This document shows, piece after piece, positions 18,738-47,151 of a stretch of 47,151 bases of DNA. The position numbers and the translations under genes are program-made. Source of the DNA: Fibrobacteria bacterium (lineage in GTDB: Bacteria; Fibrobacterota; Chitinivibrionia; Chitinivibrionales; FEN-1185); NCBI GenBank assembly GCA_037447435.1, contig JBBIGR010000013.1, positions 1 through 47,151 of the forward strand, read 5' to 3'. The notes beneath the pieces are model-generated. The model was not told where the DNA came from, ran no database searches, and was given only the letters and a program-made list of their open reading frames with translations. Within the stretch, counting starts at the first letter, position 1; every line of letters begins with the position of its first letter.

Positions 18738-18756
18738 TAGTCGAGGTGTGCGTATT

Positions 18757-20393: not shown

Positions 20394-20407
20394 AGGCATC
20401 TTCCTAG

Positions 20408-20423: not shown

Positions 20424-20474
20424 TTAATTACCCTATGAGCGTTAACATCTTCATCCCTTCGAAAGGATAATAAC

Positions 20475-20624: not shown

Positions 20625-20693
20625 CATCCGAAATAGGGAATAATTCCTGCTTACTATTTGACAGAGGATTTGACTATAGGGAGAGGCGTAGTA

Positions 20694-27617: not shown

Positions 27618-27653
27618 AACAAGCAAGGCTTTAGGATGACGACCAACACCCTC

Positions 27654-29831: not shown

Positions 29832-29927
29832 ATGCGATCCTTTCTATATCACGTCGATAGGTTCAGTTGAGGTACGCGTCTGGCGTAGATATTTTTTATT
29901 GAGCTGCTAATCTCTCATATCTAAGAG

Positions 29928-29943
29928 AGCAAAGACTTTGCCA
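29928..29943 (-). promoter_or_regulatory. sigma54 -24/-12 promoter candidate for glgX (between treY and glgX)
   Basis: Minus strand reads TGGCAAAGTCTTTGCT. Confidence 0.6.
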
Positions 29944-29959
29944 GAACTTTGAAATGCCT

Positions 29960-32764
29960 TCACGCTTCCAGAATGGCAAGCGGGAACGAGGAAAAAAGGT
30001 CGCCCACAAGCGTATTGCTTACGCCGGGAACTGTTTCGTTTGTCAATATGTTGCGCCAAGACGAGGGCATTGCCTCGGAAGGCATGGACATGGCCGTGTC
30101 TCGCCACAAATCCCTGCCCAGAGGAAGCCGTCCTTCGGGAACAAAACCTGTAAGAAATCTGGGCACAACAACCGCAATGCATGAGCCTGCGTATTTTTTG
30201 ACGAATCCCACGACCGAGTTTTTATGAGAACCTTTGAAACTCAAAGGAAGGTATTGTCCTTTTTCAAAAACGTCATGCTTCGTTTTCCGCAAGTTCAGGG
30301 AACGGTGATACAGATACATTTTAACGTGCCCGTTTGTCATGCTTGTGAGCAGATCCTTCACAAGTGCCTGTAAATCGCCACCTTCCCTGGCAACGATAGC
30401 GTCAAGGGCTATTTTACGGTTTGCAAAGTCGACTTGGCGTCGGTTGTCCGGGTCAACCAGGTTCAAGTCCCAAGTCTCTGCTCCTTGATAGCAATCCGGT
30501 ATTCCCGGGGTAGTAAGCTTAAGTGCGGTTTGCGAAAGGGAATTAAATATGCCGTACCACGCGATCTTCCGTTGAAACGGGATGAAATCGGCCAGGAATT
30601 TATTTGACGGATCGTTATCGAGGATCGCGGTGATGAATTCGGCGATGCCTCCTTCGTAATCGCTGTCGAATTTTATCCAGTTTGAATTTTCTTTCGCTTC
30701 CCGTACCGCTTTGAGCGCATATCCCCGTACCCTGCCGGGGTACGACGCCAACGCATTTTGATCGAAAGGAAATGATCCGACCAGCGTCTGGTACAGCATA
30801 TATTCGACATTTGCGTCGGGCACCGGTTTGTCATCGATGATCTTGACAAATCCGCGGTTCATCGAGCGCCATTTTCTGACCTGCTTGCTCCATTCCGTGG
30901 GAATTTCGGACAAAACGTTAATCCGTGCACGAGTGTCTGCGCCTTGTTTGGTATCGTGCGTCTCGGTCGAATTGAACGACGACGGCCAGTGTTCCTGGCG
31001 GAATTTGCAGAAATCATGGAACGACTCGTTTTTATCCCCAAAGCGTCCGGGATCGCCGCCTACTTCATTGAGGGAAATGAGGCGGTTATAATTGTAAAAA
31101 ACCGTATCTTCAAACCCCTTTGCCATCAGCGCACCGGAAAATTGCTGCAGTCGCATGATGAATCCGAGCCGGTCGGACGGCCTCTGATCATGCTCCGCGC
31201 TTTCGCCGGTTTGAATGAGGAATTTGTTAATGAAATGAAGTTCGTTGATAAGCGACGGGTTTTTCATCTGTGCTTTTGTGATCGCCTGCGTCAAGTATGC
31301 ACGGTCCCGTTCGGCAATATTGTCCGGATTGATGTAGGTGCGGTACACCGGAAAATACGCCAAAAGCTCGACAATGGCACGACGAAGCGCATACATGGTG
31401 ATGTCGCTGCCCATACGGTCTTTCCCCGCGATACGTTTTAGAAGTAAGGCACAATTGTCAATGTCTCCGGCCATATATTTTTCGATGATGACCCGTTTCT
31501 TTTCAACAACCAGATCGTCAAAAGAAAAAATCCTCTCCGTGAATTCGGCGTAGATCTTGTCAAAGGCTTGTTGACTGTCGCTACGAATGAAAAGAGTATT
31601 GACGGCGCTTAGAAATTCGTAGCCGGTCGTACCTTGCACAGGCCATTGTTCCGGGAGCGTTTCGTTGCGGCTTAAAATCTTCTCGCATACGATAAAGGTT
31701 TCCGGGAATCTCATTCGTATCCGTTTCAGATATTCGAGGGGATCGTAGAGTCCGTCGATGTGATCGATTCTCAGCCCCTGGACAATGCCTTTGTCCAGCA
31801 TGTCAAAAATCATTGTGTTGATACTATCGAATACTTCGGGTATTTCCACTCTAACTCCGATCAGATCGCTTATAGTGAAAAATCGCCTGTAATTGAGTTC
31901 TTCCGAAGCGACTTTCCAAAACGCAAGCCGGAAAAACTGGGATGCATGCAACTCGTCGAACCGCTCATACCCCTTTGGATTTTCCATTGATCCGTTGAAA
32001 CCGGCTATTGCCTCATCCATTGCTGTCCTTACGAGATTGCTTTCTATATAAAGATCCCTGAGTATTGTGCGCGCCATGGAAATTGTGGCATTCCGTTCTT
32101 CGGGGAGGATCTGTTTTGCGGGCTTTTGAAAAGACAATAGCGCGCCGATGAACTTTACTAGGATCGGATTATCCTCATGCAATTCCGCTTTGAGCTTGTC
32201 TGTGCAACCGCTGAATACCTCAGCATATGTCTCTGGCTGGACCGGAAAGCGCTTTCCATAACAACCGATAAAAAGGCCCTTTTCATCCATCTTCAGGGCA
32301 AGATCGCCTGCCTCGAGACTGCTGCCGTATGTCGTCCCCAGGAATGGTAAAAGAATTTTTCCCCGAAGATTTTCGTACGGATGGTCCCAGGTAACGTCGA
32401 AAAACTTTCCGTACACCGAGTCCTGGCCATTTTCCAAAACATCGGCAAGCATTTTGTTGGCAGGATCAAACGCCATGTGATTCGGAACGATATCCTGAAT
32501 CCATCCGATACCATTTTCCTGAAGTTGTTGGATGAGTTCCGAAAATTCCTCGGTTGAGCCCAACTCGGGATTCAGCGAATTGTCGTCGCAGATGTCGTAG
32601 CCGTGAGTGCTTCCCGGACGTGCCTTAAAAATTGGAGAAGCGTATACATGTGAGATTCCCAGGGAAGCGAGGTACTCCACGATTTCAGTGCAGGATTTGA
32701 ACGTGAAATTCGAATTGAACTGAATCCTATATGTAGACAAAGGCAAGCGTTTGGTTGTGTCCAT
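29960..32764 (-). CDS. treY: Malto-oligosyltrehalose synthase
   Basis: STYRIQF, GSTHGYD, DIVPNHM, NYRRFF, GLRIDHIDGL, EKIL, THDTK, LVDPDNRR. Start taken at ATG 32764. Confidence 0.95.
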   Translation of the reverse strand: MDTTKRLPLSTYRIQFNSNFTFKSCTEIVEYLASLGISHVYASPIFKARPGSTHGYDICDDNSLNPELGSTEEFSELIQQLQENGIGWIQDIVPNHMAFDPANKMLADVLENGQDSVYGKFFDVTWDHPYENLRGKILLPFLGTTYGSSLEAGDLALKMDEKGLFIGCYGKRFPVQPETYAEVFSGCTDKLKAELHEDNPILVKFIGALLSFQKPAKQILPEERNATISMARTILRDLYIESNLVRTAMDEAIAGFNGSMENPKGYERFDELHASQFFRLAFWKVASEELNYRRFFTISDLIGVRVEIPEVFDSINTMIFDMLDKGIVQGLRIDHIDGLYDPLEYLKRIRMRFPETFIVCEKILSRNETLPEQWPVQGTTGYEFLSAVNTLFIRSDSQQAFDKIYAEFTERIFSFDDLVVEKKRVIIEKYMAGDIDNCALLLKRIAGKDRMGSDITMYALRRAIVELLAYFPVYRTYINPDNIAERDRAYLTQAITKAQMKNPSLINELHFINKFLIQTGESAEHDQRPSDRLGFIMRLQQFSGALMAKGFEDTVFYNYNRLISLNEVGGDPGRFGDKNESFHDFCKFRQEHWPSSFNSTETHDTKQGADTRARINVLSEIPTEWSKQVRKWRSMNRGFVKIIDDKPVPDANVEYMLYQTLVGSFPFDQNALASYPGRVRGYALKAVREAKENSNWIKFDSDYEGGIAEFITAILDNDPSNKFLADFIPFQRKIAWYGIFNSLSQTALKLTTPGIPDCYQGAETWDLNLVDPDNRRQVDFANRKIALDAIVAREGGDLQALVKDLLTSMTNGHVKMYLYHRSLNLRKTKHDVFEKGQYLPLSFKGSHKNSVVGFVKKYAGSCIAVVVPRFLTGFVPEGRLPLGRDLWRDTAMSMPSEAMPSSWRNILTNETVPGVSNTLVGDLFSSFPLAILEA

Positions 32765-32765
32765 A

Positions 32766-34577
32766 TCAAATTTCCCCCAGGAGCATGATCGCGTTCCACG
32801 GGTGAAGCGAGAGCACCGTACCCTTGACAATTGTCTGCGGTACTCGTGAACCGGGCCCCATCCATTGTGTGTCCGCGGAATCAAAAACCTCTTTCCATTC
32901 TCCCGTATAGGGCATAGTCAAATCAAGCGGCTCGGCTGTAAAATTGAAGAAACAAACGGATCGCCAATTTTCTTTGCTTCGGTCAAGTGCAACAACACGG
33001 CCATTTCCGAAGGTTGTTACCCGTATGCGTTTCCTGTCGAATTGGCTGAGTGGGGGACATGTCTTTCTGAGGAGAATAAGTTTCTTATACATGCCGAGGA
33101 TAGCGCCATTATTTATGCCCGATCGTTTCCGCCAATCCAGTTTGGAGAGTAAAAACGTCGAACGGTCAAAGGGGTTTACGGGATTGCCCGAGGAGAACTC
33201 TTCCGCTTTTGCCTTCCGCACGGCATTCACGACCGTTTGGTCGGAATGATCGGCAAAAAAGAGGAACGGGGTGTTTTCGGCATATTCTTCGCCCATGAAA
33301 AGCAAGGGGACAAAGGGGGACAAAATAACGGCCGAGGCGGCCAGTTTCAACGCCTCAAAAGAAACGAGCGAACTAAGCCGTTCGCCAAGCATCCTGTTAC
33401 CGATCTGGTCGTGGTTCTGAGAACACACGACAAAACGGAACAGGGGTATTTGGGCCGTAGAATTCCCATGATCCTTCTTTCTGAACTGCGAATACTGTCC
33501 GGAATAAACAAAACCGTTTTTAAACGACAGGGCCATGTGATCGATCGATCCGAAATCACAATAGTAGCGGGTTACATCTTTTGTCAATAACGATTGGAGC
33601 GAGTGATGGAAGTCGTCGGTCCATTGGCCATCAAGGCCTGTTCCGAATTCCGATGTCGGCCGCACGATGCGTGCGTCATTGAGGTCGCTTTCCGCAACCA
33701 GATATCGTTTCCGCCCGTTTTTTCGGCTAAAAGATTCGACGTGTTTTGCCAGGTCGGAAAGAAACGAACGCGCGCTGAAATCGTATATGGCTTGAATCGC
33801 ATCGAGCCTCAGTCCGTCGATATGGAAATCCCGCAGCCAGTATATCGCATTCTCTATGAAATAATTACGGACTTCATTTGAATACTCGCCGTCGAAGTTG
33901 ATCGGCGATCCCCAGAGCGTACTGTATTTTTTTGAAAAATACGGGCCGAATTCGCCAAAATAGCTTCCTTCCGGTCCGAAGTGATTGTATACGACGTCGA
34001 GAAAGACCGCTATCCCGGATTTGTGGCACAGGTTGACGAATGTCTTGAAACCGTTGCATCCGCCGTACGAATTTTGAACCGCAAAAGGATATGCGCCGTC
34101 GTATCCCCAGTTTCTTTCGCCCGGAAACGCGGCAACAGGCATGATTTCCACCGCGTTTACTCCCAGGTTTGACAAATGCTTCACGAAGTCTTGAGCCGAT
34201 GCAAACGTTCCCTCAGGGGTGAAGCATCCGATATGGATTTCATAAAATATCGTTTCTTCGATAGGAATTCCCTTCCAATCAAGGTCGTCCCATTGGAATT
34301 CGCACTGGTCGATCACTTCCGAAGGGCCGTGAACGCCCTGCGGCTGAGATTGCGATGCCGGATCGGGCATCGTTTTTTCTTCGTTAAGCAAATAAAGGTA
34401 CGAAGTGCCCGATTCAATATTTCCTATTATGCAAGACCAATAGCCTTTTTCGTCCTTTTCCATCGGGAACCGTTGTCCATGAGGCAAAAGGATTTTGACA
34501 TCAATTCGCTTGAGAAACGGCGCCCAGACGGTAAAAGTACATTTACCTTGTTTGTTGAGCCATGCTCCAACCTGCAT
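32766..34577 (-). CDS. treZ: Malto-oligosyltrehalose trehalohydrolase
   Basis: FTVWAP, PDPASQSQPQGVHGPS, RNWGYDG, GLRLDA, QNHDQIGNR, PLLFMGEEY. Start taken at ATG 34577 because the longer start overlaps the promoter motif. Confidence 0.95.
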   Translation of the reverse strand: MQVGAWLNKQGKCTFTVWAPFLKRIDVKILLPHGQRFPMEKDEKGYWSCIIGNIESGTSYLYLLNEEKTMPDPASQSQPQGVHGPSEVIDQCEFQWDDLDWKGIPIEETIFYEIHIGCFTPEGTFASAQDFVKHLSNLGVNAVEIMPVAAFPGERNWGYDGAYPFAVQNSYGGCNGFKTFVNLCHKSGIAVFLDVVYNHFGPEGSYFGEFGPYFSKKYSTLWGSPINFDGEYSNEVRNYFIENAIYWLRDFHIDGLRLDAIQAIYDFSARSFLSDLAKHVESFSRKNGRKRYLVAESDLNDARIVRPTSEFGTGLDGQWTDDFHHSLQSLLTKDVTRYYCDFGSIDHMALSFKNGFVYSGQYSQFRKKDHGNSTAQIPLFRFVVCSQNHDQIGNRMLGERLSSLVSFEALKLAASAVILSPFVPLLFMGEEYAENTPFLFFADHSDQTVVNAVRKAKAEEFSSGNPVNPFDRSTFLLSKLDWRKRSGINNGAILGMYKKLILLRKTCPPLSQFDRKRIRVTTFGNGRVVALDRSKENWRSVCFFNFTAEPLDLTMPYTGEWKEVFDSADTQWMGPGSRVPQTIVKGTVLSLHPWNAIMLLGEI

Positions 34578-34608
34578 ACCGAACCTTCTTTCATATAAGA
34601 AGTATAAA

Positions 34609-34624
34609 AGCAATTAGTATGCCT
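34609..34624 (-). promoter_or_regulatory. sigma54 -24/-12 promoter candidate for treZY
   Basis: Minus strand reads AGGCATACTAATTGCT. Confidence 0.7.
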
Positions 34625-35569: not shown

Positions 35570-38044
35570 ATGGAAAAAGAAATTGAAAGGCCCGGTCCTC
35601 CCGAATCTAAGTCAGAGTCTCAAGACGATCTGAAATCTCTTCCTATGGCTGACCTGCTTGTTCGATTGGCGTCCTCGTCTGAGGGAATCAGCCAAGAGGA
35701 AGCGCAAAAACGGCTCACGAAATATGGTCCGAATGAAATCGTGGAAAAGAAAACAAATCAACTCTTAAAATTCCTCGCCTATTTTTGGGGACCTATTCCA
35801 TGGATGATAGGGGTGGCGGTAATTCTTTCTGGCGTTGTTGGCCACTGGCCGGATTTTTTCATCATTCTTCTTTTGCTCATTGCCAACGCCGTTGTCGGAT
35901 TCTGGGAAGAACGCGAGGCGGGCAACGCCATTGCGGCCTTGAAGTCCAAGCTGGCTGTCAAGGCTCGGGTGAAGCGAAATGGAAAGTGGGTAAACCCGGC
36001 AGCCCGCGAGTTGGTCCCGGGCGACGTCATTCGTCTGCGTATTGGCGATATCGTGCCGGCAGACGCCAGGTTGTTTGACGGCGATGGGGTGGAAGTGGAC
36101 CAGTCGGCATTGACAGGAGAGTCTTTGCCGGCAACGCGCAAGGCGGGCGAGGCGGTGTTCTCGGGGTCGATTATTCGCCAGGGCGAAATCGATTCAATTG
36201 TGTATGCGACAGGTGCAAGCACCTTTTTCGGTACAACCGCACAGTTGGTGCAGGGAAAGCAAAGTATCAGCCATTTCCAACGAGCAGTTCTTAAAATAGG
36301 AAATTATTTGATCATCCTTGCCGCAGCATTGGTTGCAGCGATTATCATTGTCGCCATTGTGCGCGGCGACCCGTTTCTCACTACATTACAATTCGCGTTG
36401 GTATTGACCATTGCCGCGATTCCGGTCGCAATGCCCACGGTATTGTCCGTCACCATGGCCGTGGGAGCGCGCCTGCTTGCCAAAAAGCAAGCGATCGTGA
36501 GCAGGCTGACGGCTATCGAGGAGTTGGCGGGCGTGGATATATTATGCTCCGACAAGACCGGAACGCTCACCCAGAACAAGTTGACGTTAGGTGACCCCTT
36601 CTCCGTTAACGGTGTCCCGGTTGAGCAAGTTATACTCTGTGCCGGTTTGGCCTCCCGAGCGGAAAACAATGACACCATTGACCTGGCCGTTTTGAGCGGC
36701 CTGAAGGATGACCGGGTCTTAAAATCCTACGACGTGGTCCATTTCCAACCGTTCGATGCCGTAAACAAACGAACCGAAGCAATTGTCAAGGCCTCGGACG
36801 GAAGCACATTCAAAGTCACCAAGGGCGCTCCGCAGGCAATCCTGGAATTGTCTGCTAATGCCGCACAGATAAGGCTTGTTGTCGAAAATGCGGTCAACGA
36901 ATTTGCCGGCCGAGGTTTTCGATCGATCGGCGTTGCCCGGGCCCACGGGCAGGATCAATGGCAATTCCTTGGTGTGTTGCCTTTGTTCGATCCGCCGAGA
37001 GAAGATGCCAAGGCAACCATCGAGACGGCCGGAAGAATGGGCGTAAAAGTCAAGATGGTAACCGGGGATCAGCTTGCAATAGCTCGGGAAACCGCCAATA
37101 AATTGGGTATGGGTGCCGCAATTCTCGATGCAAGCAGCCTGGGTGACTCGAAACGCAAGGAGACCGCGGAGACGGCCGAGTCCATTGAAAAAGCCGACGG
37201 TTTTGCCCAAGTATTTCCTGAGCATAAGTTTCACATCGTGGATGTTTTGCAAAAACGAGGACACATCGTCGGGATGACCGGAGACGGAGTAAATGACGCG
37301 CCTGCTCTTAAGAAAGCCGACTGCGGCATAGCGGTTTCGGGCGCAACCGACGCGGCACGCGCCGCCGCCGCCATCGTATTGATGACGCCGGGGCTTTCCG
37401 TGATTATTGAGGCAATAAAGGAGAGTAGGAAAATCTTCCAACGCATGAACAGCTATGCAATCTATCGCATTGCCGAGACCTTGGGTGTGTTGTTGTTCAT
37501 GACTCTCGCGATTCTGATCTTCAATTTTTACCCATTGACAGCCGTGATGATCGTGATGCTTGCATTACTCAACGACGGCGCCATATTGTCAATTGCATAT
37601 GACAACGTTCATTACAACGATCGACCGGAGTCGTGGAATATGCGTCTGGTCATGGGCATCGCCTCGGCGGTAAGCGTGATAGGGCTTTTGGACTCCTTCG
37701 GCTTGTTCTATCTTGGCGAACGAGTCTTTCACCTCGATCGTGCGCTCATACAAACGCTGATGTATTTGAAATTGTCCGTTGCGGGTCATTTCAAAATATT
37801 TCTGACGCGAACGCGCGGCCCTTTTTGGTCTATACGGCCCGCGCCGATCTTATTGGCAGCGGTTATTGGAACGCAAGTTATAGCAACTATAATTGCCGTA
37901 TATGGGCTGTTTATGCCGCCGATCGGCTGGGGGTGGGCGCTTTTGGTGTGGGGATATTCATTGGTATGGTTCTTTGTGAATGACCGGGTTAAACTCTTTG
38001 GATACCGGGTTTTGGATTCTGCCAACCCGATTCGTGAAGAATAG
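35570..38044 (+). CDS. Plasma-membrane proton-efflux P-type ATPase (P3A)
   Basis: TGESLP, IPVAMP, DKTGTLT, KGAP, GDGVNDAPALKKAD, FQRMNSYAIYRI, and LNDG in M6. Confidence 0.93.
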   Translation: MEKEIERPGPPESKSESQDDLKSLPMADLLVRLASSSEGISQEEAQKRLTKYGPNEIVEKKTNQLLKFLAYFWGPIPWMIGVAVILSGVVGHWPDFFIILLLLIANAVVGFWEEREAGNAIAALKSKLAVKARVKRNGKWVNPAARELVPGDVIRLRIGDIVPADARLFDGDGVEVDQSALTGESLPATRKAGEAVFSGSIIRQGEIDSIVYATGASTFFGTTAQLVQGKQSISHFQRAVLKIGNYLIILAAALVAAIIIVAIVRGDPFLTTLQFALVLTIAAIPVAMPTVLSVTMAVGARLLAKKQAIVSRLTAIEELAGVDILCSDKTGTLTQNKLTLGDPFSVNGVPVEQVILCAGLASRAENNDTIDLAVLSGLKDDRVLKSYDVVHFQPFDAVNKRTEAIVKASDGSTFKVTKGAPQAILELSANAAQIRLVVENAVNEFAGRGFRSIGVARAHGQDQWQFLGVLPLFDPPREDAKATIETAGRMGVKVKMVTGDQLAIARETANKLGMGAAILDASSLGDSKRKETAETAESIEKADGFAQVFPEHKFHIVDVLQKRGHIVGMTGDGVNDAPALKKADCGIAVSGATDAARAAAAIVLMTPGLSVIIEAIKESRKIFQRMNSYAIYRIAETLGVLLFMTLAILIFNFYPLTAVMIVMLALLNDGAILSIAYDNVHYNDRPESWNMRLVMGIASAVSVIGLLDSFGLFYLGERVFHLDRALIQTLMYLKLSVAGHFKIFLTRTRGPFWSIRPAPILLAAVIGTQVIATIIAVYGLFMPPIGWGWALLVWGYSLVWFFVNDRVKLFGYRVLDSANPIREE

Positions 38045-38125
38045 AAATGTTTTTGACGACAGGACGTATTCTGCGGGCGGGAATGTACAATCTGCCTGAA
38101 TTCCTCTGAAAAACAAACCATTCTG

Positions 38126-38153
38126 TTGCAATTAAAACAGAGTATTTTATAAT
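38126..38153 (+). promoter_or_regulatory. sigma70-like promoter candidate
   Basis: TTGCAA-N16-TATAAT ending 9 bp before ATG 38163. Confidence 0.4.
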
Positions 38154-38162
38154 AAGCTATAT

Positions 38163-38753
38163 ATGAGACAAAAACAAAAATCGTTTTTCATTTCCTATCT
38201 GTGGGCCGGGATTTTTATTTGTTTTTTCAGCGTGCAGGCTCAAGCTCTGGTATTTGTGCCGATTAACCACACATTTCAAGAAAAACCCGTATGGTGCTGG
38301 AATGCTTGTGTAAAAACCATTCTTGAATATTACAACCAGAAGGTCACTCAAAAAGAAATTGCCGACTGGGCGGTAGGCGGTCAGGCTGTTTGTGATTTTT
38401 TCTACGGCAATTGCAGCGGAAGAAAATCAATTGAAGCCATCCTTAATCATTTTGGGATAGATACACAAAGATATACGCGACCCTTGACTTTTGAGGAATT
38501 GACCGGACTTTTCGATGCCCAAAAGGCGGTTATAATCAGATGGAGTCTGGGAAACAACCAGGGGCATTTCGTTGTCTTACACGGTTATGTACCCAAAACC
38601 GATTCGATTTTCGTTATGGATCCCCAGGAGCCCATTGATCACACATGGAAATATGATTCTGTAGTTAAAGACAATGAACATGTTTGGACCAATAGTCTTG
38701 CAATAACCACGCTTCCTCCTCACAAAAACGGTACGCATAAACTACCGGGATAA
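38163..38753 (+). CDS. Exported papain-like/C39-like cysteine peptidase
   Basis: Signal peptide (AQA), Q....WCWNAC, GHFVVLHGY, VMDP (Cys-His-Asp triad). Confidence 0.8.
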   Translation: MRQKQKSFFISYLWAGIFICFFSVQAQALVFVPINHTFQEKPVWCWNACVKTILEYYNQKVTQKEIADWAVGGQAVCDFFYGNCSGRKSIEAILNHFGIDTQRYTRPLTFEELTGLFDAQKAVIIRWSLGNNQGHFVVLHGYVPKTDSIFVMDPQEPIDHTWKYDSVVKDNEHVWTNSLAITTLPPHKNGTHKLPG

Positions 38754-38757
38754 GAAA

Positions 38758-38788
38758 GGCCGGTTCTTCGATTTTTGAAAAACCGGCC
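38758..38788. terminator. Hairpin between convergent genes
   Basis: GGCCGGTT.TTC / GAA.AACCGGCC stem. Confidence 0.55.
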
Positions 38789-38889
38789 CCGGTGCATTAT
38801 AAATTCTTTATTTCCAAAAAAACAGTCGGATTTTCCGCTTTTTAGATTTCCACGCTTTCCTGACCGCTATTTACATGTATGAATTACTT

Positions 38890-39177
38890 CTAATAATGAC
38901 TGATTTTTGCCGTATCTAGAATTTTAGGCTTTGCAGTCGTATCCCCATTGTTTCGCCCGCCGCCCATTCCTCCATTGGCCGTATCTTGGGGTGCGGATCG
39001 GTATGCCGTATCTTTACCTCCACCCCAACCGCCAAGATCCGAATCGCCGGCGGTTTTTACCGAGGATTTGTTTACTGACGGAGAAGATTGCAAAGGAGGA
39101 TCCGCCGCGTTCGGCGCCATCGCCAATCCGCAAATCAGAACATATATACTTACTTGAATCATTCTTATCGTTTTCAT
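38890..39177 (-). CDS. Small exported low-complexity Gly/Asp-Thr-rich protein
   Basis: AAGGAGG RBS, signal peptide, GGWGGGKDTA / GGMGGGRNNGDTTA repeats. Confidence 0.65.
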   Translation of the reverse strand: MKTIRMIQVSIYVLICGLAMAPNAADPPLQSSPSVNKSSVKTAGDSDLGGWGGGKDTAYRSAPQDTANGGMGGGRNNGDTTAKPKILDTAKISHY

Positions 39178-39419
39178 GATTAGCCTCCTTAAAATCCTGA
39201 ATGCCGCTCTTGCTCGTGGAATTCATACTCGGACGGCTAATCCCAGCTTTTTCGGAAAAAGAACCCTTCATAACTCCACCTCATGTTTTGCAAATAAATA
39301 CGAATCGTTCGGGGCGATTATTTTTATTAATCCGCAAAAAACGGGAATTATCAAAATTGGGAAAGGATTGTCATTTTTGCAAATCCTCAAATTCGGATCA
39401 TAACCCTCATATATCGTAC

Positions 39420-39435
39420 TGGCACCGATATTGCG
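39420..39435 (+). promoter_or_regulatory. sigma54 -24/-12 promoter candidate for ppk2-lipoprotein-ldh
   Basis: TGGCACCGATATTGCG. Confidence 0.72.
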
Positions 39436-39507
39436 TAAAGGTATTATCAGCAGTTACGATAGTTTCCGTGGTGAAAAAATCCGGGCATCCCAACAATCGG
39501 AGATTCC

Positions 39508-40371
39508 ATGAAAATCGATACGGAAAAATTTCGTGTTCGGCCTAAAGAAAAAGTAGAACTTAAAAAACAACGGACACGAATAAAACCTTTCTACAAATCC
39601 ACGGAAAAATATAAGGAAATCCTCGTTGAGCACGTTAAAAAAATGAACGGTCTGCAATCTTTACTTTATGCATACAACCGCTATTCGGTGTTGCTGATCG
39701 TGCAAGGCATGGATGCAGCCGGAAAAGACGGAATCATCAAACATGTATTGTCTGGTGTCAACCCGCAGGGCTGCGAGGTTTTCAGTTTTAAAGAGCCCAG
39801 TGCCGAAGATCTTGCCCACGATTTCCTCTGGCGTACCACCTGTAAGTTACCCCGGCGCGGGCGGATCGGCGTATTCAATCGTTCGTATTACGAGGAAGTG
39901 CTCATCGTTCGCGTGCATCGCGAAGTCCTTTGCAATCAAAGAATTCCGGAGGAATTGCTCGATGAGAAAACGGTGTGGAAGGAACGGTTTCGCTCCATTG
40001 TGGATTTGGAAGATCATCTTTTTCGCAACGGTACCAAAATCATCAAGATATTTTTGCATGTATCTAAAGACGAACAGCGGAAACGTTTCCTTGAGAGAAT
40101 TGATGAACCAGATAAAAACTGGAAAATCGGGTTGGCGGATATTTCGGAGAGGAGGTTTTGGAGTGATTATATGGAGGCATACGAAGATTGTCTGACCGAA
40201 ACGAGTACCCATAATTCACCTTGGTACATTGTTCCGGCCGATGACAAGGAAAATGCCCGCCTCATAGTTTCTCAAATTGTACTCAATGTGCTTGACGAGC
40301 TTTCGATGTCGTATCCCAAAACAACATCAAGACATAGGCGGGAATTGAAAAATGTCCGAAAACGGATTTAA
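39508..40371 (+). CDS. ppk2: Polyphosphate kinase 2 family protein
   Basis: [42 protein letters not shown]. Confidence 0.93.
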
Positions 40372-40391
40372 TAAGGAATAAAGATATTTAT

Positions 40392-41003
40392 ATGAATAAA
40401 GTTATCATGTGTGTAGGACCTGCTAAAATTCTACGAGAGAAGGCACTGACATCTCTTTTGAGAATTTTCATTGTTGTTTTTGTGTTTGCGAGTTTGTCGG
40501 GGTGCATGAGGTACCTTACTCACGACCGCTCCAAGGTCCTGCTTCCCGGTGTCGACATCGATCAAACTCTCAAAATTGCCGCCATAGAAATCGACAAAGG
40601 GACTTTAGGCTGCGTGCTCGGACTATGGGTAATCCGAGATCAGGTCGTGACAAATGACCAGGCAAATAAAATCAGCGACCTTTATTTTACTCATATTGGT
40701 TTACTTAAGCAAAGTTTCAACATTTGGCATTTGACATGGACCATTGCCGATCTTTATAAAAATGGAGATGAAACGACTAAAGCCGAACTTAAAAAAGCAT
40801 ACGAAGATGCAAAAAGTCGGGCAAAGTCTTTAGGCGGACTTGCCAATAAAATGGTTAATGGAGATAACGTTTATATGGGCGATGCCCACTTTCTTGGTCG
40901 GCGTTATGCCGAACTCCATGTTGTTGTTCCGGGAAATAAACAATATCTTCAATCGTTCGAAGAATATCTTAAGAAGCATCCAAAAAGTATTGGAACTAAT
41001 TAA
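40392..41003 (+). CDS. Hypothetical lipoprotein
   Basis: Hydrophobic stretch ending in the lipobox LSGC. Tightly spaced between ppk2 and ldh. Confidence 0.65.
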   Translation: MNKVIMCVGPAKILREKALTSLLRIFIVVFVFASLSGCMRYLTHDRSKVLLPGVDIDQTLKIAAIEIDKGTLGCVLGLWVIRDQVVTNDQANKISDLYFTHIGLLKQSFNIWHLTWTIADLYKNGDETTKAELKKAYEDAKSRAKSLGGLANKMVNGDNVYMGDAHFLGRRYAELHVVVPGNKQYLQSFEEYLKKHPKSIGTN

Positions 41004-41020
41004 TTAAGCGAGGTGCATTC

Positions 41021-41986
41021 ATGGAAAGCAACGAAAAACAGAATAACTCCCGAAAAGTCGTGATTGTTGGGTCGGGTGATGTCGGCGCGTCGTTTGCATA
41101 CGCCCTTCTCATGAGCGGAACAGCGGAAAGCATCGTGTTGATTGATGCGAAACAGGAACTTGCACAAGGACAGGCGCTCGATTTGGCGCAAGGGCTTTCT
41201 TTTGTTCCTACAACGATAGTCCGTGCAGGAACTCCCGATGACTACGCCGATGCGGCGGTTATCGTGATAACAGCCGGATCAAAGCAAAAACCGGGGGAGT
41301 CACGCCTGAATCTTTTAACACGAAATGCACGCATAATGGATGAGATCGTCGACCAGATAACTGCGCGCAACTCACAGGCTATTATTGTGGTGACCTCAAA
41401 TCCCGTCGATGTCCTTACCTATACCGCATTAAAGCGGACGGGGTGGCCGCGAAATCGTATCATCGGATCCGGCACTGTTCTTGATAGCGCCAGATTCCGA
41501 CACCTGCTCAGCGAACATTGCGGTGTGGATGTCCGAAGCATTCATGCTTACATTCTCGGGGAACACGGGGACAGCGAAGTACCTGCCTGGTCTATGACCC
41601 ATATTGCGGGTATGTTGATGGATGATTATTGTTCGTTTTGCCACAAATGCGATTGGGAGAATCAGCGGAGTAAGATCGACACACAAGTACGGGATTCCGC
41701 ATATCATATAATCGATGCGAAAGGATCCACTTGTTATGCTATCGGGCTGGCATTGGTGCGTATCGTTGAAGCTATATTGCGCAATGAGCACGGCGTATTG
41801 ACCGTATCGTCACTTCTTGACGGCGAATACGGGCTTGCGGATGTTTGTCTGAGTGTTCCCTGTATCGTGTCACAATGCGGCGTTGAAAGAATAATAGAGG
41901 GAAAATTGACAGACCAAGAATTGGTCTCTCTTCGCGCATCGGCATCGGTGATCAAGAAAAACATTAATGAATTAGTGACTAAATAA
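41021..41986 (+). CDS. ldh: L-lactate dehydrogenase
   Basis: GSGDVG, AGSKQKPGESRL (Gln specificity residue), NPVD, GTVLDSARF, LGEHGDS. Confidence 0.93.
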   Translation: MESNEKQNNSRKVVIVGSGDVGASFAYALLMSGTAESIVLIDAKQELAQGQALDLAQGLSFVPTTIVRAGTPDDYADAAVIVITAGSKQKPGESRLNLLTRNARIMDEIVDQITARNSQAIIVVTSNPVDVLTYTALKRTGWPRNRIIGSGTVLDSARFRHLLSEHCGVDVRSIHAYILGEHGDSEVPAWSMTHIAGMLMDDYCSFCHKCDWENQRSKIDTQVRDSAYHIIDAKGSTCYAIGLALVRIVEAILRNEHGVLTVSSLLDGEYGLADVCLSVPCIVSQCGVERIIEGKLTDQELVSLRASASVIKKNINELVTK

Positions 41987-42093
41987 AAATTATAACTCGG
42001 TACCATGGTCTACGCATCCCGCGAGATAAGAAATCGGCTAAAACTATCGAGTTGCGAAGCTACGGGCTGGTCGGGTAAAAGGAATGAAAATAT

Positions 42094-42109
42094 TGGCATT
42101 GTATTTGCG
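42094..42109 (+). promoter_or_regulatory. sigma54 -24/-12 promoter candidate for rubredoxin-DUF302(-TPR-U32)
   Basis: TGGCATTGTATTTGCG. Confidence 0.7.
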
Positions 42110-42192
42110 TTCTTTTTGTCCGTCATATTTCATTTCAGATTTTACCAAAATTCATTAATTCTTTTTAATGTTAAATGCTAGAATGAGGGCTT

Positions 42193-42351
42193 ATGGAAAA
42201 GTGGCAATGTTCGGCTTGCAGCTATGTGTATGACCCTGCAAAGGGCGATCCGGATAATGGCATTGCAGCGGGAACAAAATTCGAGGATTTGCCGGATTCA
42301 TGGGTTTGTCCCGATTGCGGTGTAGAAAAGGCTATGTTCGAAAAAATATAA
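42193..42351 (+). CDS. Rubredoxin (52 aa; not in ORF track)
   Basis: Translated by hand: [52 protein letters not shown]. Two CxxC knuckles, GAGG RBS. Confidence 0.96.
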
Positions 42352-42372
42352 TCCTGTTAAAGGCGGCAGCCG

Positions 42373-42759
42373 ATGTCGTATTATCATTCAAAACGTATAA
42401 ACGTTAATTTCGAGGATGCAATAACGAGTGTCATCGAAGCCCTTAAAATTGAGGGCTTCGGTGTATTAAGCCAAATTAACATGTCGGAAAAATTAAAGGA
42501 AAAGCTCGGCATCGACATTCCTCGCTATGTGATCATTGGTGCATGCAATCCTCCTTTGGCGTATAAAGCCTTGCAGGCGGATGACAAAATAGGTGTTATG
42601 CTTCCGTGCAATGTTATTGTCCAGGAAAAGGAATCGGGCCATATTGAAGTGGCCGCCATAGACCCTATCGCATCGATGGCAGCAACAGGAAATGCCGCAT
42701 TGGAAAACATTGCCGCCGAAGTGAGCGGAAAATTAAAAAGAGTCGTGAATTCATTGTAA
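42373..42759 (+). CDS. DUF302 domain protein
   Basis: EGFGVL..I, IIGACNP..A..AL, IGVMLPCNVIV. Confidence 0.9.
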   Translation: MSYYHSKRINVNFEDAITSVIEALKIEGFGVLSQINMSEKLKEKLGIDIPRYVIIGACNPPLAYKALQADDKIGVMLPCNVIVQEKESGHIEVAAIDPIASMAATGNAALENIAAEVSGKLKRVVNSL

Positions 42760-42811
42760 AAAAACGTCGTATGGGAATTTATTCTCGAGCCGAATTCGGC
42801 ATGCGCATGAA

Positions 42812-43570
42812 ATGAAAAACCTGTTTATCATTCTTATTGCGTTATTGGTACGCCCTATTTGTGCCGACACTGCACCATGCAAGGGGTTGATTGACAGCGG
42901 AGATTATTTTTATAATGAGTTCAACAATGCCATTGCCTTCGACCTGTATTGTCATGCGTATGCGCATTGTCCGCAGAGTTACGAAGCTTTAATGAAAATG
43001 ACGCGCGCCTATATTGATAGAGGACAGGAAATAGAAGCATACCGAAGAGAATCGGTGCTTGTTACCGGATTACGCTTCACCGATACTTTGCGACAACGGT
43101 ATCCCGATTCGGCGCAAGGGTATTTTCTTGCCTCGGTTGCCGCTGGCAACCTTTGCTTTATTCGAAAAGGCGCCCGAAAAGTGGCACTGGTAAGAATGGT
43201 GGAACGCAATGCAAAAAAAGCAATAGAATTGTCGCCCGGGTTTGCTCCTTCATATGTGGTTTTGGGAATTTATTACCGGGAAATCGCGGTCGCGAACCCG
43301 ATTCTTAAATTGTTGGCACGGCTTCTTCTGGGCGGAATGCCCGACGGGACACTTGTAGAATCGGAAGCTGCACTTAAGCAGGCATTACAATTATCTCCAA
43401 ACAATATTTTCGCCTTATTGGAAATGAGCCGGACGAATTTGCTCATGGGAAAAAAGAGAGAAGCAATCGAAAATTTGACGCTGTTGCGGAAATCCGAACC
43501 CGCATGGTTTTTGGATGAAAAAATCAAGAAAAAAGGCGAGCAATTGCTTCAAACGATTACGCGCCGGTAA
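42812..43570 (+). CDS. Exported TPR protein (RMDN/PTPIP51-like helical repeat)
   Basis: Signal peptide; TPR units (AKKAIELSP...YVVLG.YY, LKQALQLSPNN); hydrophobic LKLLARLLLGGMP insertion. Confidence 0.7.
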   Translation: MKNLFIILIALLVRPICADTAPCKGLIDSGDYFYNEFNNAIAFDLYCHAYAHCPQSYEALMKMTRAYIDRGQEIEAYRRESVLVTGLRFTDTLRQRYPDSAQGYFLASVAAGNLCFIRKGARKVALVRMVERNAKKAIELSPGFAPSYVVLGIYYREIAVANPILKLLARLLLGGMPDGTLVESEAALKQALQLSPNNIFALLEMSRTNLLMGKKREAIENLTLLRKSEPAWFLDEKIKKKGEQLLQTITRR

Positions 43571-43622
43571 GATGACTTATGATAAAAAATAAACGAAATA
43601 GAATCTGAAACGGGGGGCCTGC

Positions 43623-44897
43623 ATGAAGTTAAGCGTTGCGTACAATTTTGATACGTCCCTTATTCCGAAGCTTGCGAAATACCCCGAAGTTTCCGAAGTA
43701 TACGGGAAGCTTGACAAAGATATCATCGGCGGCGGACGTTCGACCTACACACTTAAGCCGACCTCATGGTCTGCTTTGGTTTTTGCAATACGGCAGGCTC
43801 ATGAAAATAATATCGCATTCAATTACCTGCTTAATGGCGCCACTTTGGGCGGTTTGGAGCAAACCAGAACCGGACAGCGCGCATTACGAAAGTTCATCGA
43901 ATCATTGGAAGACATCGGCGTCGATAATCTGACGGTCGCGTCTCCTTATCTTTTACGATTGATAAAAAACAGGTATCCGCATTTTAAGGTGCGAGTCGGC
44001 GTATTTGCATTGATCAATGACCCGATAAAGGCGAAAAGCTGGGAAGACATGGGGGCCGACACGCTGTGCATCAGTGCGACGTCGTGCAACCGGAATTTTC
44101 CTCTTTTGGCAACAATTCGAAGCGCCGTTTGTTGCGACGTGCAACTCATTGCCAATGCAAGCTGTCTTCCCAGCTGCACTCACGAGCTTACCCATATGAA
44201 TTTAATGACTGCAAGCTCCCGCAAAGGCGATGTCAATAAAGGGTTTTGCCTTGACCATTGTTTTCTTCACTGTTCCGCAAAGAAGATTATGGAACCGATC
44301 AATTTCATCCGCAGTACCTGGATACGTCCCGAAGACCTTACTATATACGAGCAACTGGGATATTCGAATTTTAAACTGGTCGAACGCTCATGCTCCACCG
44401 ATTTGCTTATGAAACGAGTGGCAGCGTATACGGCCAGGTCTTTTACCGGGAATTTGTTGGAAATCGCCGGTCCTGTAGCACAAATCAACAAGCAACAAGG
44501 CGCCTCGATTCGGCAGAGGATACGAATGGCACTGCTTATGTTCAAACCTCTTAAAATTAGGATTTCCACGTTACTGAAAACAAAACACTATGCTTCGACA
44601 ATCTTATTTTCCGATTTTAGCAGGGACAACGCGCCGGTATACATTGACAATAGTGCGCTGGACGGATTTTTAAACGGACTTATATTCCGCACCTGCGCGA
44701 CTCTTTCCTGCAAAGAATGCGGTTATTGTTCGGCATGGACAAAAAAAGCGGTGTCCATAGAACAATCGTACCGCCTGAATGCCTTGACACAGGCCAACGA
44801 ACTCGATGATGGCCTGCTGAGCGGCGCGCATTGGTTCGGGTCACGCCCTGTATTCGCGGAGCACGAGGCCGGCATTATGCCCTCCAAAAGCGAATGA
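43623..44897 (+). CDS. U32 'peptidase' family protein, Cys-rich (probable Fe-S enzyme)
   Basis: GGGR, AH...FNYLLN, GVDNLTVASP, WIRPEDL, FKLVER. Cys motifs C181xxxC185, C209, C213xxxC217 and a C-terminal CxxxxCxxCxxC. Confidence 0.8.
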   Translation: MKLSVAYNFDTSLIPKLAKYPEVSEVYGKLDKDIIGGGRSTYTLKPTSWSALVFAIRQAHENNIAFNYLLNGATLGGLEQTRTGQRALRKFIESLEDIGVDNLTVASPYLLRLIKNRYPHFKVRVGVFALINDPIKAKSWEDMGADTLCISATSCNRNFPLLATIRSAVCCDVQLIANASCLPSCTHELTHMNLMTASSRKGDVNKGFCLDHCFLHCSAKKIMEPINFIRSTWIRPEDLTIYEQLGYSNFKLVERSCSTDLLMKRVAAYTARSFTGNLLEIAGPVAQINKQQGASIRQRIRMALLMFKPLKIRISTLLKTKHYASTILFSDFSRDNAPVYIDNSALDGFLNGLIFRTCATLSCKECGYCSAWTKKAVSIEQSYRLNALTQANELDDGLLSGAHWFGSRPVFAEHEAGIMPSKSE

Positions 44898-46181
44898 CTG
44901 GGTAAATGCCGTTCTAATGTCGAACATCGCCGGTTTTGTGACAAAACTAAGTGGCCGTACCGGCTCGTCAAGATTTTTGCAGGCATGGGTTGTCTTGCGA
45001 GCGATACTCAGCGCCGTCACTGCAGTTTCGATGGCTCCAGCAGCGCCAATAGTATGGCCGGTCAGAGACTTGGTAGCATTTATCAATGGACGCGTACCAA
45101 AAATAGACTCGATGGTATTTGCTTCTATTTCGTCGTTTTGTTCGGTCGAGGTCCCGTGCGCGTTAATGTAATCGATTTCCCGGGGTAAAACATTCGCTTT
45201 TTCGAGGGCCAGCAGGATCATACGGCGGATTTGCTTTGCCGAAGCATCTATGCTCATTATCGAATGGGCATCGAAGGTTTCGGCATGAGAAAGCACTTCC
45301 GCAATAATGGGAGCGCCTCGATCTTTCGCTTGTGAAAGTTCCTCCAGGACAAGCACTGCACTACCGCCCTCCGCAAAAAGGAACCCGGATCTCTTTTTAT
45401 CGAACGGCCGGTTGGCCGTTTGGGGATCGGCGCATTGTTTTACCAGTGTTTTTGCGACATCGAAGCCGCGAAAAACCCCACCGTAATCATCGGCAACATA
45501 TTCCGCGCCTCCAGCAAGTGCGGCATCGGCCGTGCCATGGCTAATGGCCTCGAAGGCTTGGCCAATAGCCATGGTTCCGGAAGCGCAGGCATTGCAAAGG
45601 GTACGATTCGGCCCTGTTATCGAAAACCTGATGCCGAGAATCGCCGAACACGAATTGGGCATTGCCATGGAAACCGCAAACGGGTTGAAACGCGCAGGTG
45701 CGTGTACGACTTCGGAGAAATCGTTCGGTGAAAGCGATTTCTTTTGCAATAAGGTCGAGCATGGCGAGAGAATATGGTTTCCTTCATTTTGGGCAAATGA
45801 GGATATACCCCCGATGCCGGTGCCCATGAAAATGCCGGTACGGTCTCCGGAAAACCCCTCTATGGAAAACAGGTTTTTTTTCTCGTCTGTCAGCTTTGGA
45901 GGCAATCGCGCGTTTGTAAGCGCTTCCTGGGCCGAAAGTATCGCCAGAATGGTCGATTTGTCGAGTTGCATCCGCTCGATGCGAGTGATGCCGCGCGCAT
46001 CGAAATCGATTGTCGGAAGCGATGCCCAGAGGCGAGATTGCGGCTGCCAGTAATTGAGCCAATGCTCGGGAATGTGTTGAACCGATGAACGTGCCGCAAT
46101 GCTATTGTCCCAAAATTCCTCGGTTGTTGCGCCATTGGGCGCGACGACGCCGATTCCGGTGATGACAACGCGCCGTTTCAT
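44841..46181 (-). CDS. FabF-like beta-ketoacyl-ACP synthase (KAS II / type II KS)
   Basis: RRVVITGIG, NACASG (catalytic Cys), INAHGTST, KSLTGHTIGAAG, SFAFGGHNA. Confidence 0.92.
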   Translation of the reverse strand: MKRRVVITGIGVVAPNGATTEEFWDNSIAARSSVQHIPEHWLNYWQPQSRLWASLPTIDFDARGITRIERMQLDKSTILAILSAQEALTNARLPPKLTDEKKNLFSIEGFSGDRTGIFMGTGIGGISSFAQNEGNHILSPCSTLLQKKSLSPNDFSEVVHAPARFNPFAVSMAMPNSCSAILGIRFSITGPNRTLCNACASGTMAIGQAFEAISHGTADAALAGGAEYVADDYGGVFRGFDVAKTLVKQCADPQTANRPFDKKRSGFLFAEGGSAVLVLEELSQAKDRGAPIIAEVLSHAETFDAHSIMSIDASAKQIRRMILLALEKANVLPREIDYINAHGTSTEQNDEIEANTIESIFGTRPLINATKSLTGHTIGAAGAIETAVTALSIARKTTHACKNLDEPVRPLSFVTKPAMFDIRTAFTQSFAFGGHNAGLVLREYRA

Positions 46182-46447
46182 ACCGCAGCCACTTGGTTTT
46201 TTCGGGAATTGATAAACGCAACAACGTCGCCCACAGTTTCCAATGTCAAAGCCGTTTCGTCGGAAATCGGTTCCTTGAATACGTCCTCGAGCGACATGAG
46301 CAGCGATACGGTGTCGAGCGAATCGGCTCCCAGGTCGTTCTTGATATGGCTTTCCAGTTTTACCAATTCCGGCTTGACTTTAAGTACTTCGCATACGACC
46401 GCGACGGTCTTTTCATACAATGGGTCTTGTACCTGAACTGAGTCCAT
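46178..46447 (-). CDS. Acyl carrier protein
   Basis: DLGADSLD phosphopantetheine site. AAGGAG RBS before ATG 46447. ATGA overlap with the KS gene. Confidence 0.92.
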   Translation of the reverse strand: MDSVQVQDPLYEKTVAVVCEVLKVKPELVKLESHIKNDLGADSLDTVSLLMSLEDVFKEPISDETALTLETVGDVVAFINSRKNQVAAV

Positions 46448-46666
46448 GAATGCTCCTTTGTGAAAGTGAAATCGAATTCTCCGTAGTCCAATTACTAAAT
46501 TATTGATCGTTAACAATAACTAACCCCATGGGATAAATTTACTTTATATATTATCTACGTAAAAGCCTAAATAATTCCGATATAGGTACTAAAACACCTG
46601 TTGCTTTGTTTTTTGCGATAATTATATTTCCATCAATTATTCACTCGACTTCAACAAAGGCTTCGG

Positions 46667-47151
46667 ATGTTGCATTTGCCAATAGCCCGTATACGTTCCT
46701 GCGGAACCGCAAATCCGCCGGTGAAAATCGATCAGCGCAACGCGTTAGAACTTCTTTTGGTCCATTACAAAGACCAACTTTCCGATCGCGGGCTCGACGT
46801 GTTGTCGCAAACCCTTTCGCATCCATCAATTGCCTCCCGGTATTTTTCGTTCGATACCGCCGCCGAGCTCGTCAAAATGCGCGATGAGGATCCCGACGTA
46901 CGCGTCGCACGCTTTTCCCGATTTTCCGTCGAACTTTCGGCACAGGCGCTTCGCAATGCTCTAGCGCACATCGGGATGGCCCCTCAGTCTGTAGACATGG
47001 TCATTGTCAATACTTGCACGGGCTATCTTTGCCCTGGCATTTCGACCTATCTTACCGAAAAATTCGAATTCGCTCCCGGCGTCCGACTTTACGATTGCGT
47101 TGGCAGCGGATGCGGCGGGGCTGAAGGCCGGTGTCGCGCGGATCGACATCA
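46667..47151 (+). CDS. Type III polyketide synthase (chalcone/stilbene synthase family), 3' truncated; not in ORF track
   Basis: Translated by hand: MLHLPIARIRSCGTANPPVKIDQ...HPSIASRYF...ELSAQALRNAL...DMVIVNTCTGYLCPGIS...RLYDCVGSGCGGA. Catalytic Cys149 at 47111-47113. No stop before the window end. Confidence 0.88.
   Translation, partial: MLHLPIARIRSCGTANPPVKIDQRNALELLLVHYKDQLSDRGLDVLSQTLSHPSIASRYFSFDTAAELVKMRDEDPDVRVARFSRFSVELSAQALRNALAHIGMAPQSVDMVIVNTCTGYLCPGISTYLTEKFEFAPGVRLYDCVGSGCGGAEGRCRADRH

Follow-up and report, generated by a model that had tools for sequence, protein, structure and literature searches.

A U32-family gene linked to a type III polyketide synthase in Fibrobacterota: a candidate oxygen-independent hydroxylase for phenolic lipids

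A U32 gene within a polyketide synthase cluster

A contig of Fibrobacteria bacterium (JBBIGR010000013.1, assembly GCA_037447435.1) carries a gene for a U32-family protein alongside genes for a type III polyketide synthase (PKS), a ketosynthase (KS) and an acyl carrier protein (ACP). The stretch analysed here, which we call the window, covers nucleotides 1 to 47,151 of this 102,868-nt contig; coordinates past 47,151 are contig numbering that continues the window's, and the genome (G000) measures 5.05 Mb with a completeness score of 99.6%. We propose, with a probability of roughly 0.55, that the cluster produces an alkylhydroquinone or alkylquinone, a phenolic lipid with added methyl groups and a hydroxylated ring. 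The ring oxygen is predicted to be inserted without O2 by the U32 protein, so that the cluster would be an O2-independent variant of SrsABC, HidABC and PkqABC. The O2-independent hydroxylation is suggested by the U32 family itself, by the missing flavoprotein and by a related clade of U32s linked to oxidosqualene cyclase (OSC). That this U32 is part of the PKS pathway is almost certain. The gene for a tetratricopeptide repeat (TPR) protein and that for U32 point rightwards, KS and ACP leftwards and PKS rightwards, followed beyond the window edge by two leftward methyltransferase genes:

42812..43570, plus strand: TPR protein, probably exported, RMD1-3-like; an occasional neighbour, not core
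43623..44897, plus strand: U32-family protein (PF01136), 424 aa, TIM-barrel, predicted Fe-S oxygen-insertion enzyme
44841..46181, minus strand: dedicated FabF-like KS, 446 aa, with catalytic C199/H342/H376 intact and two clade-specific insertions
46178..46447, minus strand: ACP, 89 aa, DSL serine 43, TIGR00517 over cut-off
46667..47151 (contig stop 47742), plus strand: type III PKS, N-terminal part, catalytic C149, with NTCTGYLCPG and GSGCGGA; HPGG and GNMSS lie past the gap
47768-48541 (contig, outside the window), minus strand: UbiE/MenG-like methyltransferase, PF01209 E 4.8e-28
48543-49322 (contig, outside the window), minus strand: second methyltransferase, PRK06202-like, hid-type, homologous to the methyltransferase of the L290 operon

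Every open reading frame named in a preliminary description of this DNA is present, including those for U32, KS, ACP, PKS and TPR. The PKS, recognised there by TCTGYLCPG and GSGCGGA, starts at 46667 on the plus strand and is indeed transcribed divergently from ACP-KS, and the translational coupling of that pair is evident from the ATGA by which the end of ACP overlaps the start of KS. The overlap reported between KS and U32 is real (57 nt) but lies between convergent genes, tail to tail, and is not translational coupling; it is made by a non-conserved, low-pLDDT, dispensable tail of U32. A hydrophobic N-terminal stretch in the 42812-43570 product agrees with an exported TPR protein encoded upstream of U32. 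The cluster was described as cut off, which holds for the window edge but not for the contig, which runs on and holds the remainder of PKS together with two methyltransferases; the tailoring genes predicted beyond the edge therefore exist.

U32 and the polyketide synthase genes occur together

The genome-level comparison covered 41 genomes of this Fibrobacterota order, that of the window included, with E<1e-75 taken as a strong U32 match and E<1e-110 as a match to the dedicated KS. U32 was strong in 27 of the 41 genomes and PKS was found in exactly the same 27, the other 14 having neither; G013 gave a weak U32 match only. The dedicated KS followed the same split (26/27 U32-positive versus 0/14 U32-negative genomes), the exception being G005, whose sole KS match has 40% identity. 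This concordance of 27/27 against 0/14 is far beyond a random split, read with the proviso that related genomes are not independent. Since the presence of U32 and PKS varies inside six families, gains or losses have been concerted, among relatives that are not independent and genomes of which some are incomplete.

Loci were collected by two scans, each yielding the best 80 of more than 550 confirmed matches, and the sample leans to close relatives; antisense shadow clusters c3 and c17 were removed from the gene maps. The Fibrobacterota-clade loci represent 39 of the clade's 41 rows, and 25 of them, the window's own included, have at least 4.5 kb downstream. In these 25, counting PKS up to 8 kb from U32, we found PKS in 22, ACP in 21, KS in 20, the second (hid-type) methyltransferase in 19 and the UbiE-like one in 15, and a flavoprotein near U32 in none. 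The linkage of U32 to PKS, KS and ACP that had been proposed for checking thus held at the level of both loci and genomes. The genes differ in order and orientation from locus to locus; several loci are wholly co-directional, running U32, ACP, KS, PKS.

Outside this clade, PKS lies near U32 in 21 of 37 loci having at least 3 kb on each side, for example as U32, methyltransferase, PKS, or as YceI, PKS, MMPL, UbiE, U32. These records include Desulfobacterales, Geobacter, Planctomycetota, Verrucomicrobiota and Nitrospinales, so the link recurs in several phyla. One U32 homolog, P0118, is labelled as coming from Chitinivibrio alkaliphilus, a cultured anaerobe. The KS-ACP pair is essentially a Fibrobacterota addition (KS in 2 and ACP in 0 of the 37). 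Taking all 79 PKS-linked U32s, a methyltransferase is near 62 and a flavoprotein near 3. One Planctomycetota sample holds both methyltransferase-flavoprotein-PKS loci (L287, L288, L290) and a U32-methyltransferase-PKS locus (L278). Fusions also occur: U32 is joined to the second methyltransferase in L170 (L170:5282-7180), and the UbiE-like and second methyltransferases form one open frame in L208.

The genome of the window has a second U32-PKS-methyltransferase operon (C24:63257-66387; L002:15258-18388), without KS or ACP, whose U32 is 47% identical to that of the window. This operon follows biotin-synthesis-like genes (bioC/bioD/bioA/bioF/bioH-like, labelled by their sequence features) and reads in the same direction as they do. 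A search of open-access full text, with supplements outside its scope, found no paper linking U32 with a type III PKS. This locus contributes three things: a dedicated KS-ACP pair, the concordance across genomes and a tree that joins PKS-linked and OSC-linked U32 clades.

The U32 protein is remote from characterised members

The window U32 matches PF01136 at E 8e-8 (32.3 bits against a gathering cut-off of 22.4), placing it in the U32 family, and the Atlas clusters nearest to it are also U32. Its AlphaFold model (pLDDT 91.5) is a TIM barrel, and the best fold match is 5D88 (Foldseek E 2.8e-12, target TM 0.74). This structure is of Mk0906, an uncharacterised archaeal U32, which is also the best sequence match (E 1.4e-5), with 18% identity and the match confined to the barrel. 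To our knowledge, most U32 subfamilies have no assigned function.

Among 186 distinct U32 sequences gathered from the loci, C181, C185, H191, D211, C213, C217, C358, C363, C366 and C369 are each kept in 177-186. They form the pattern CX3C-X5-H...DXC-X3-C followed by a C-terminal CX4CX2CX2C (C358, C363, C366, C369). In the alignment C181 coincides with C170 of TrhP and C169 of RlhA, the latter described as essential. The conserved cysteine sets and this aligned position make it likely that the protein carries one or two metal clusters.

The window U32 thus has in common with UbiU-UbiV, TrhP and RlhA of E. coli the TIM barrel, the aligned first cluster cysteine and conserved cysteine sets, and the proposal borrows their logic of replacing flavin hydroxylases without O2 (PMC6747719, PMC5727448, PMC10990095). 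Prephenate is the oxygen donor for UbiU-UbiV (PMC10990095), and the substrates of characterised U32 proteins are aromatic or heteroaromatic rings; in these accounts, direct in vitro hydroxylase activity is reported for no member (PMC10990095, PMC11574389). The differences are considerable: UbiU-UbiV is a pair of U32 genes, whereas this cluster has a single one with other cysteine spacing and a predicted polyketide substrate. In a four-sequence search its resemblance to TrhP (E 9e-12), UbiU (8e-4) and RlhA (9e-3) proved remote. The NCBIfam TrhP model gives 14.8 bits against a cut-off of 534, and besides TrhP there is no NCBIfam match at E 0.01, so the protein does not group as an ortholog of the characterised hydroxylases.

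This remoteness also argues against an RNA-modifying role, part of an explanation that we consider very improbable, in which U32 has no part in the pathway and is an RNA-modifying enzyme or protease travelling with the PKS genes by shared descent. Such descent would account for the gene order common to related genomes and for the U32, KS and PKS distance matrices, which correlate as expected of vertical inheritance (r 0.46-0.53), and the homologs are named 'collagenase-like protease' in databases. Against it, the linkage survives many rearrangements of gene order and direction and recurs in several phyla and in several clades of PKS; U32 is retained in three genomes (G015, G026, G034) in which it lies apart from KS-ACP-PKS; and U32, PKS and the dedicated KS are jointly missing in 14 genomes.

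A proposed route from acyl chain to ring-hydroxylated lipid

The PKS reading frame appears to span a 10-N scaffold gap (47152-47161) and to run on to a stop at 47742. GSGCGG, HPGG and GNMSS occur across the two parts of the gene, which supply the Cys-His-Asn triad of a type III PKS; the chalcone-synthase domains PF02797 and PF08392 match, and the motif spacing across the gap is within ~1 nt of that in homologs. The KS retains its catalytic Cys-His-His and is distinct from housekeeping FabF (KAS II) by TIGR03150 (325 bits, cut-off 493.75). A separate FabF-like gene adjoining an ACP is located on C27 of the same genome, and the cluster KS is 32% identical to it. The second methyltransferase is homologous to that of the L290 operon (27% identity over 220 aa, E 8e-19), as in hid-type operons.

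From these families we envisage four steps. The dedicated KS would extend an acyl chain on the dedicated ACP; because the cluster is without a reductase or dehydratase gene, the product would be a beta-ketoacyl-ACP, or housekeeping enzymes would finish the chain. The type III PKS would then add malonyl units and cyclise the chain to an alkylresorcinol, and the UbiE-like and hid-type methyltransferases would add C- and O-methyl groups. Finally, U32 would hydroxylate the ring via cysteine-bound Fe-S clusters, probably with prephenate as oxygen donor as for UbiU-UbiV; the srs, pkq and hid pathways assign this step to a flavoprotein, presumably an oxygen-using one.

SrsABC of Streptomyces griseus is reportedly a polyketide quinone system of this type, and the oxidoreductase/hydroxylase of SrsABC and PkqABC is flavin-dependent. 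SrsABC and PkqABC (Mycobacterium smegmatis and Streptomyces sp. MNU77), compared here by description, share with the proposed route an alkylresorcinol, its methylation and its hydroxylation to an alkylbenzoquinone (PMC9927152), but they use that oxidoreductase/hydroxylase where this cluster has U32, in a genome that retains menaquinone synthesis (MenD). Polyketide alkylbenzoquinones are described as an alternative electron carrier in hypoxia (PMC9927152). The hidABC operon (Cyanobium hierridins) and a planctomycete methyltransferase-oxidoreductase-PKS operon likewise combine a type III PKS and a homologous methyltransferase with a proposed ring hydroxylation (PMC6836626, PMC10896814). In place of the FAD oxidoreductase of the hidABC type this cluster has U32, a UbiE-like methyltransferase and a dedicated KS-ACP pair, and its PKS belongs to another clade; the comparison was made with hid-type planctomycete loci rather than the named HidA/B/C sequences. 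An FAD-dependent oxidoreductase between methyltransferase and PKS was found in 0 of the 25 Fibrobacterota-clade loci, and hid-type flavoprotein queries gave no match in G000 at E 1e-4. The cluster would therefore work like SrsABC, HidABC or PkqABC combined with UbiU-UbiV chemistry, while falling outside both groups by the criteria applied.

A related U32 clade adjoins oxidosqualene cyclase genes

PKS-linked and OSC-linked U32s group together against distant representatives (99/99), and the OSC-linked U32s form one clade (100/100); its nesting inside the PKS-linked U32s (82/85) is not established (AU p 0.176). U32 stands directly before an OSC gene in L080, L081 (U32 at 8001-9215), L082, L085, L087, L094, L098, L103, L107, L112, L201, L202 and L204. 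These loci often hold chorismate mutase-DAHP synthase, squalene synthase and mevalonate genes. Three genomes of the window's own genus (G002, G003, G004) carry an OSC-linked U32 besides the PKS-linked one. The cyclases have a DCTAE/DCTSE motif and lanosterol synthase as best match, and squalene epoxidase (PF08491) was found in only 1 of 12 distinct genomes with OSC adjoining U32.

An OSC-centred sample comprised 251 genomes of the phylum to which a Myxococcota record belongs, taken with an 80% completeness filter; OSC was present in 23. With the seed left out, 15 of the 22 OSC genomes have the epoxidase only, four U32 only, two both and one neither (Fisher p 0.009, overstated by kinship). The OSC-linked U32 clade occurs in 6 of these 22 genomes versus 2 of 228 without OSC, these two having no cyclase over cut-off. 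In L328 (G088) and L329 (G250), from genomes with no triterpene cyclase over cut-off, U32 is close to the OSC-linked clade; in L328 a B12 radical SAM-like gene lies upstream. In G053, U32 accompanies DAHP synthase, and OSC gave no match at E 1e-30. Of 22 loci of the OSC-linked clade, 12 have a chorismate mutase-DAHP synthase gene nearby, which fits prephenate as oxygen donor (PMC10990095). In L068, L073, L161, L069, L070, L077 and L300, U32s of this clade stand with chorismate mutase-DAHP synthase away from sterol genes.

Squalene epoxidation requires O2 in the enzymes described (PMC7306690, PMC12324236), and the parts of PMC7306690, PMC8237579 and PMC12324236 available to us do not mention U32 in this role; a search of open-access full text likewise found nothing relevant on U32 with oxidosqualene. 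We regard the OSC-linked U32 as a candidate O2-independent squalene epoxidase on the strength of gene content and position. Five genomes whose U32 of this clade stands with chorismate mutase-DAHP synthase away from sterol genes (G052, G054, G055, G056, G114) have squalene epoxidase and OSC elsewhere in the genome, which suggests parallel aerobic and anaerobic routes. Two other candidates for the epoxidase were rejected: the flavoprotein between U32 and OSC is of the GGR family (compare the sterol C-24 reductase Bsr, 10.1101/2024.11.01.621555), and PF04116, as an alternative epoxidase of the fatty-acid-hydroxylase type, was not found in 5/5 tested genomes. In L294 (G277:C14) we observed an OSC without squalene epoxidase, U32 or PF04116 found, in a 3.1-Mb and maybe incomplete genome; an upstream 551-aa frame is without NCBIfam match.

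In two unrelated lipid pathways, then, the U32 family takes a place at which one would expect an oxygenase, and the placing of the OSC-linked clade in the squalene epoxidase position supports an oxygen-donating role of U32. A broader idea, which we hold tentatively and think rather less probable than the pathway itself, is that the window U32 is a member of an undescribed family of Fe-S, prephenate-dependent lipid oxygenases replacing flavin monooxygenases, acting by ring hydroxylation towards respiratory alkylquinones here and by squalene epoxidation in the related clade. If so, squalene epoxidation would permit sterol synthesis without O2, and the OSC-linked clade is relevant to the question of whether O2 is strictly required for sterol synthesis, and for sterane biomarkers. 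For the ring reaction, the cluster points to a defined and accessible substrate class (alkylresorcinols) for a single U32, which makes U32 oxygen insertion testable, and the route, if true, would mean that polyketide quinones are also made in anoxic life, across several phyla.

Weighing the proposed pathway

A number of observations, gathered in this section, weigh against ring hydroxylation by U32. The precedent is itself qualified: in known PKS operons a methyltransferase is accompanied by a flavoprotein to which ring hydroxylation is assigned (PMC6836626, PMC10896814, PMC9927152), yet the hydroxylase role of HidB is only proposed (PMC6836626) and the planctomycete flavoprotein showed no assigned activity (PMC10896814). 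The four-cysteine motif CX6CX15CX3C described for U32 proteins (PMC6747719, PMC11574389) occurs in 0 of the 186 homologs (the X4 variant lay outside the search), although UbiU and UbiV themselves deviate from CX6CX15CX3/4C. A DAHP synthase or chorismate mutase gene is near 0 of the 79 PKS-linked U32s. At the locus itself, about 10 residues just before the gap are off consensus in the window's PKS copy, and read contigs of run X1 end at 47093 and resume past the gap, with none bridging it. The only run in which this DNA was found is a subsurface metagenome, possibly its source; no RNA run was listed as containing it.

The genome has a heme-copper oxidase and MenD (over cut-off), and on this basis the host is probably not a strict anaerobe and would not need the lipid as its only quinone; MenD led us to reject the cluster lipid as sole respiratory quinone. 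MqnA/D and MqnC gave nothing over cut-off in G000. The UbiA search matched 41/41 genomes and is non-discriminating, and UbiA-like genes are near only six U32 loci (four distinct places).

The link of U32 to PKS, and of PKS to U32, is also looser elsewhere. PKS within reach is absent from 16 of the 37 other-clade U32 loci. In a FastTree phylogeny of 86 PKSs, with the C24 copy and relatives standing in for the window's split copy, the Fibrobacterota PKSs form a separate 36-row clade (support 99) outside the sampled hid-type operon PKSs. The nearest relatives without U32 come from planctomycetes: 11 PKSs, of which 10 follow a B12 radical SAM gene, in genomes where a U32 was not found. The PKS clade can therefore exist without U32.

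This phylogeny leaves the alkylresorcinol less certain than the preliminary description implied, even though the type III PKS that it named is confirmed. We consider it improbable that the product is instead a short, soluble aromatic (DpgA-like 3,5-dihydroxyphenylacetate, an orsellinate-type acid or a pyrone), with KS-ACP giving a short starter and U32 oxidising the product. The separate clade would suit such a product, as would the best NCBIfam match, DpgA, though it stays below cut-off for the window's PKS and, for the C24 copy (E 1.6e-45), at 155.5 bits is far below the cut-off of 425 for model NF042429. The best solved structural relatives are PKS18, which reportedly accepts long-chain starters, and other type III PKSs; the pairing of a FabF-like KS and an ACP suggests acyl chains; and lipid-handling neighbours recur beside the cluster, namely MMPL-type transporters (3/25 Fibrobacterota-clade and 6/37 other-clade loci) and YceI-like lipid-binding proteins (3/25 and 13/37).

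Flavoproteins and U32 are not strictly exclusive either. The two occur together in three loci (L048, L131, L078). Of 25 PKS-bearing planctomycete genomes, U32 is in two and the hid-type flavoprotein operon in only three, and one of 25 sampled planctomycete PKS loci is U32-linked; the planctomycete pattern is not a clean swap of one for the other. B12 radical SAM genes accompany U32 in 6/37 other-clade loci. Such company would fit a U32 that acts in the lipid pathway other than as a ring hydroxylase, by oxidising the alkyl chain (epoxidation, hydroxylation, desaturation) or as redox partner of a methyltransferase. This reading gains from the related clade in the squalene epoxidase position, where the substrate would be an alkene and not a ring, from the fusion in L170, from a cysteine spacing unlike that of UbiU and TrhP and from the extra C-terminal four-cysteine site. 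We nevertheless think this unlikely, if the most credible of the alternatives. Two methyltransferases, one of them UbiE-like, suit ring tailoring to a quinone, known PKS-methyltransferase operons are paired with a ring hydroxylase, and the characterised U32 proteins are ring enzymes. Ring hydroxylation without O2 accordingly ranks ahead of chain oxidation or a redox partnership, a short DpgA-like product and hitch-hiking, in that order.

Planctomycete relatives and other neighbouring genes

Ten planctomycete genomes (L270-L277, L280, L281) have a B12 radical SAM gene and then a type III PKS that falls within the PKS clade of Fibrobacterota. Hydrazine synthase alpha is present in 4/4 tested radical SAM-PKS genomes and not in a fifth planctomycete genome, which lacks the radical SAM gene; because four of the five tested carry it, the genomes with these PKSs appear to be anammox-type. 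The radical SAM-PKS pair is possibly an anammox lipid pathway, and our literature search found nothing on anammox with a type III PKS and radical SAM.

The TPR protein resembles RMD1-3-like TPRs, and a human relative, PTPIP51, is said to bind lipid. The earlier suggestion that it carries the product is weak. The gene is near the cluster in 4/25 Fibrobacterota-clade loci, and although the 10 of 40 relatives that have it are all U32-positive, it lies within about 6 kb of U32 in only two. Its scarcity near the cluster led us to reject it as an obligatory carrier. In three Fibrobacterota loci (L210, L213, L214) a flavoprotein with a phytoene-desaturase-like N-terminus, labelled by eye, lies up to 6 kb from PKS.

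Two small genes precede the TPR gene:

42193-42351: rubredoxin, bystander
42373-42759: DUF302, bystander

Neither occurs in any of 307 U32- or PKS-bearing loci, bar two cut from the window's own place. The loci comparison led us to reject rubredoxin, DUF302 and the lactate dehydrogenase as cluster members.

The rest of the window is of mixed content. The region 1326-13636 holds two beta-helix proteins (one with an Ig domain), a BNR-repeat protein, an AI-2E transporter, MlaE/ABC/MlaD genes and 6-phosphogluconate dehydrogenase. At 15396-34613 lies a glycogen/trehalose-type carbohydrate block (alpha-amylase-family proteins, 4-alpha-glucanotransferase, CBM48 proteins), broken up by BrkB-like, TamB-like and Omp85 genes. 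The region 35570-42759 encodes a P-type ATPase, a C39-like peptidase (38163-38753), polyphosphate kinase 2, an unannotated 203-aa protein (40392-41003) and a lactate/malate dehydrogenase, and ends with the rubredoxin and DUF302 genes.

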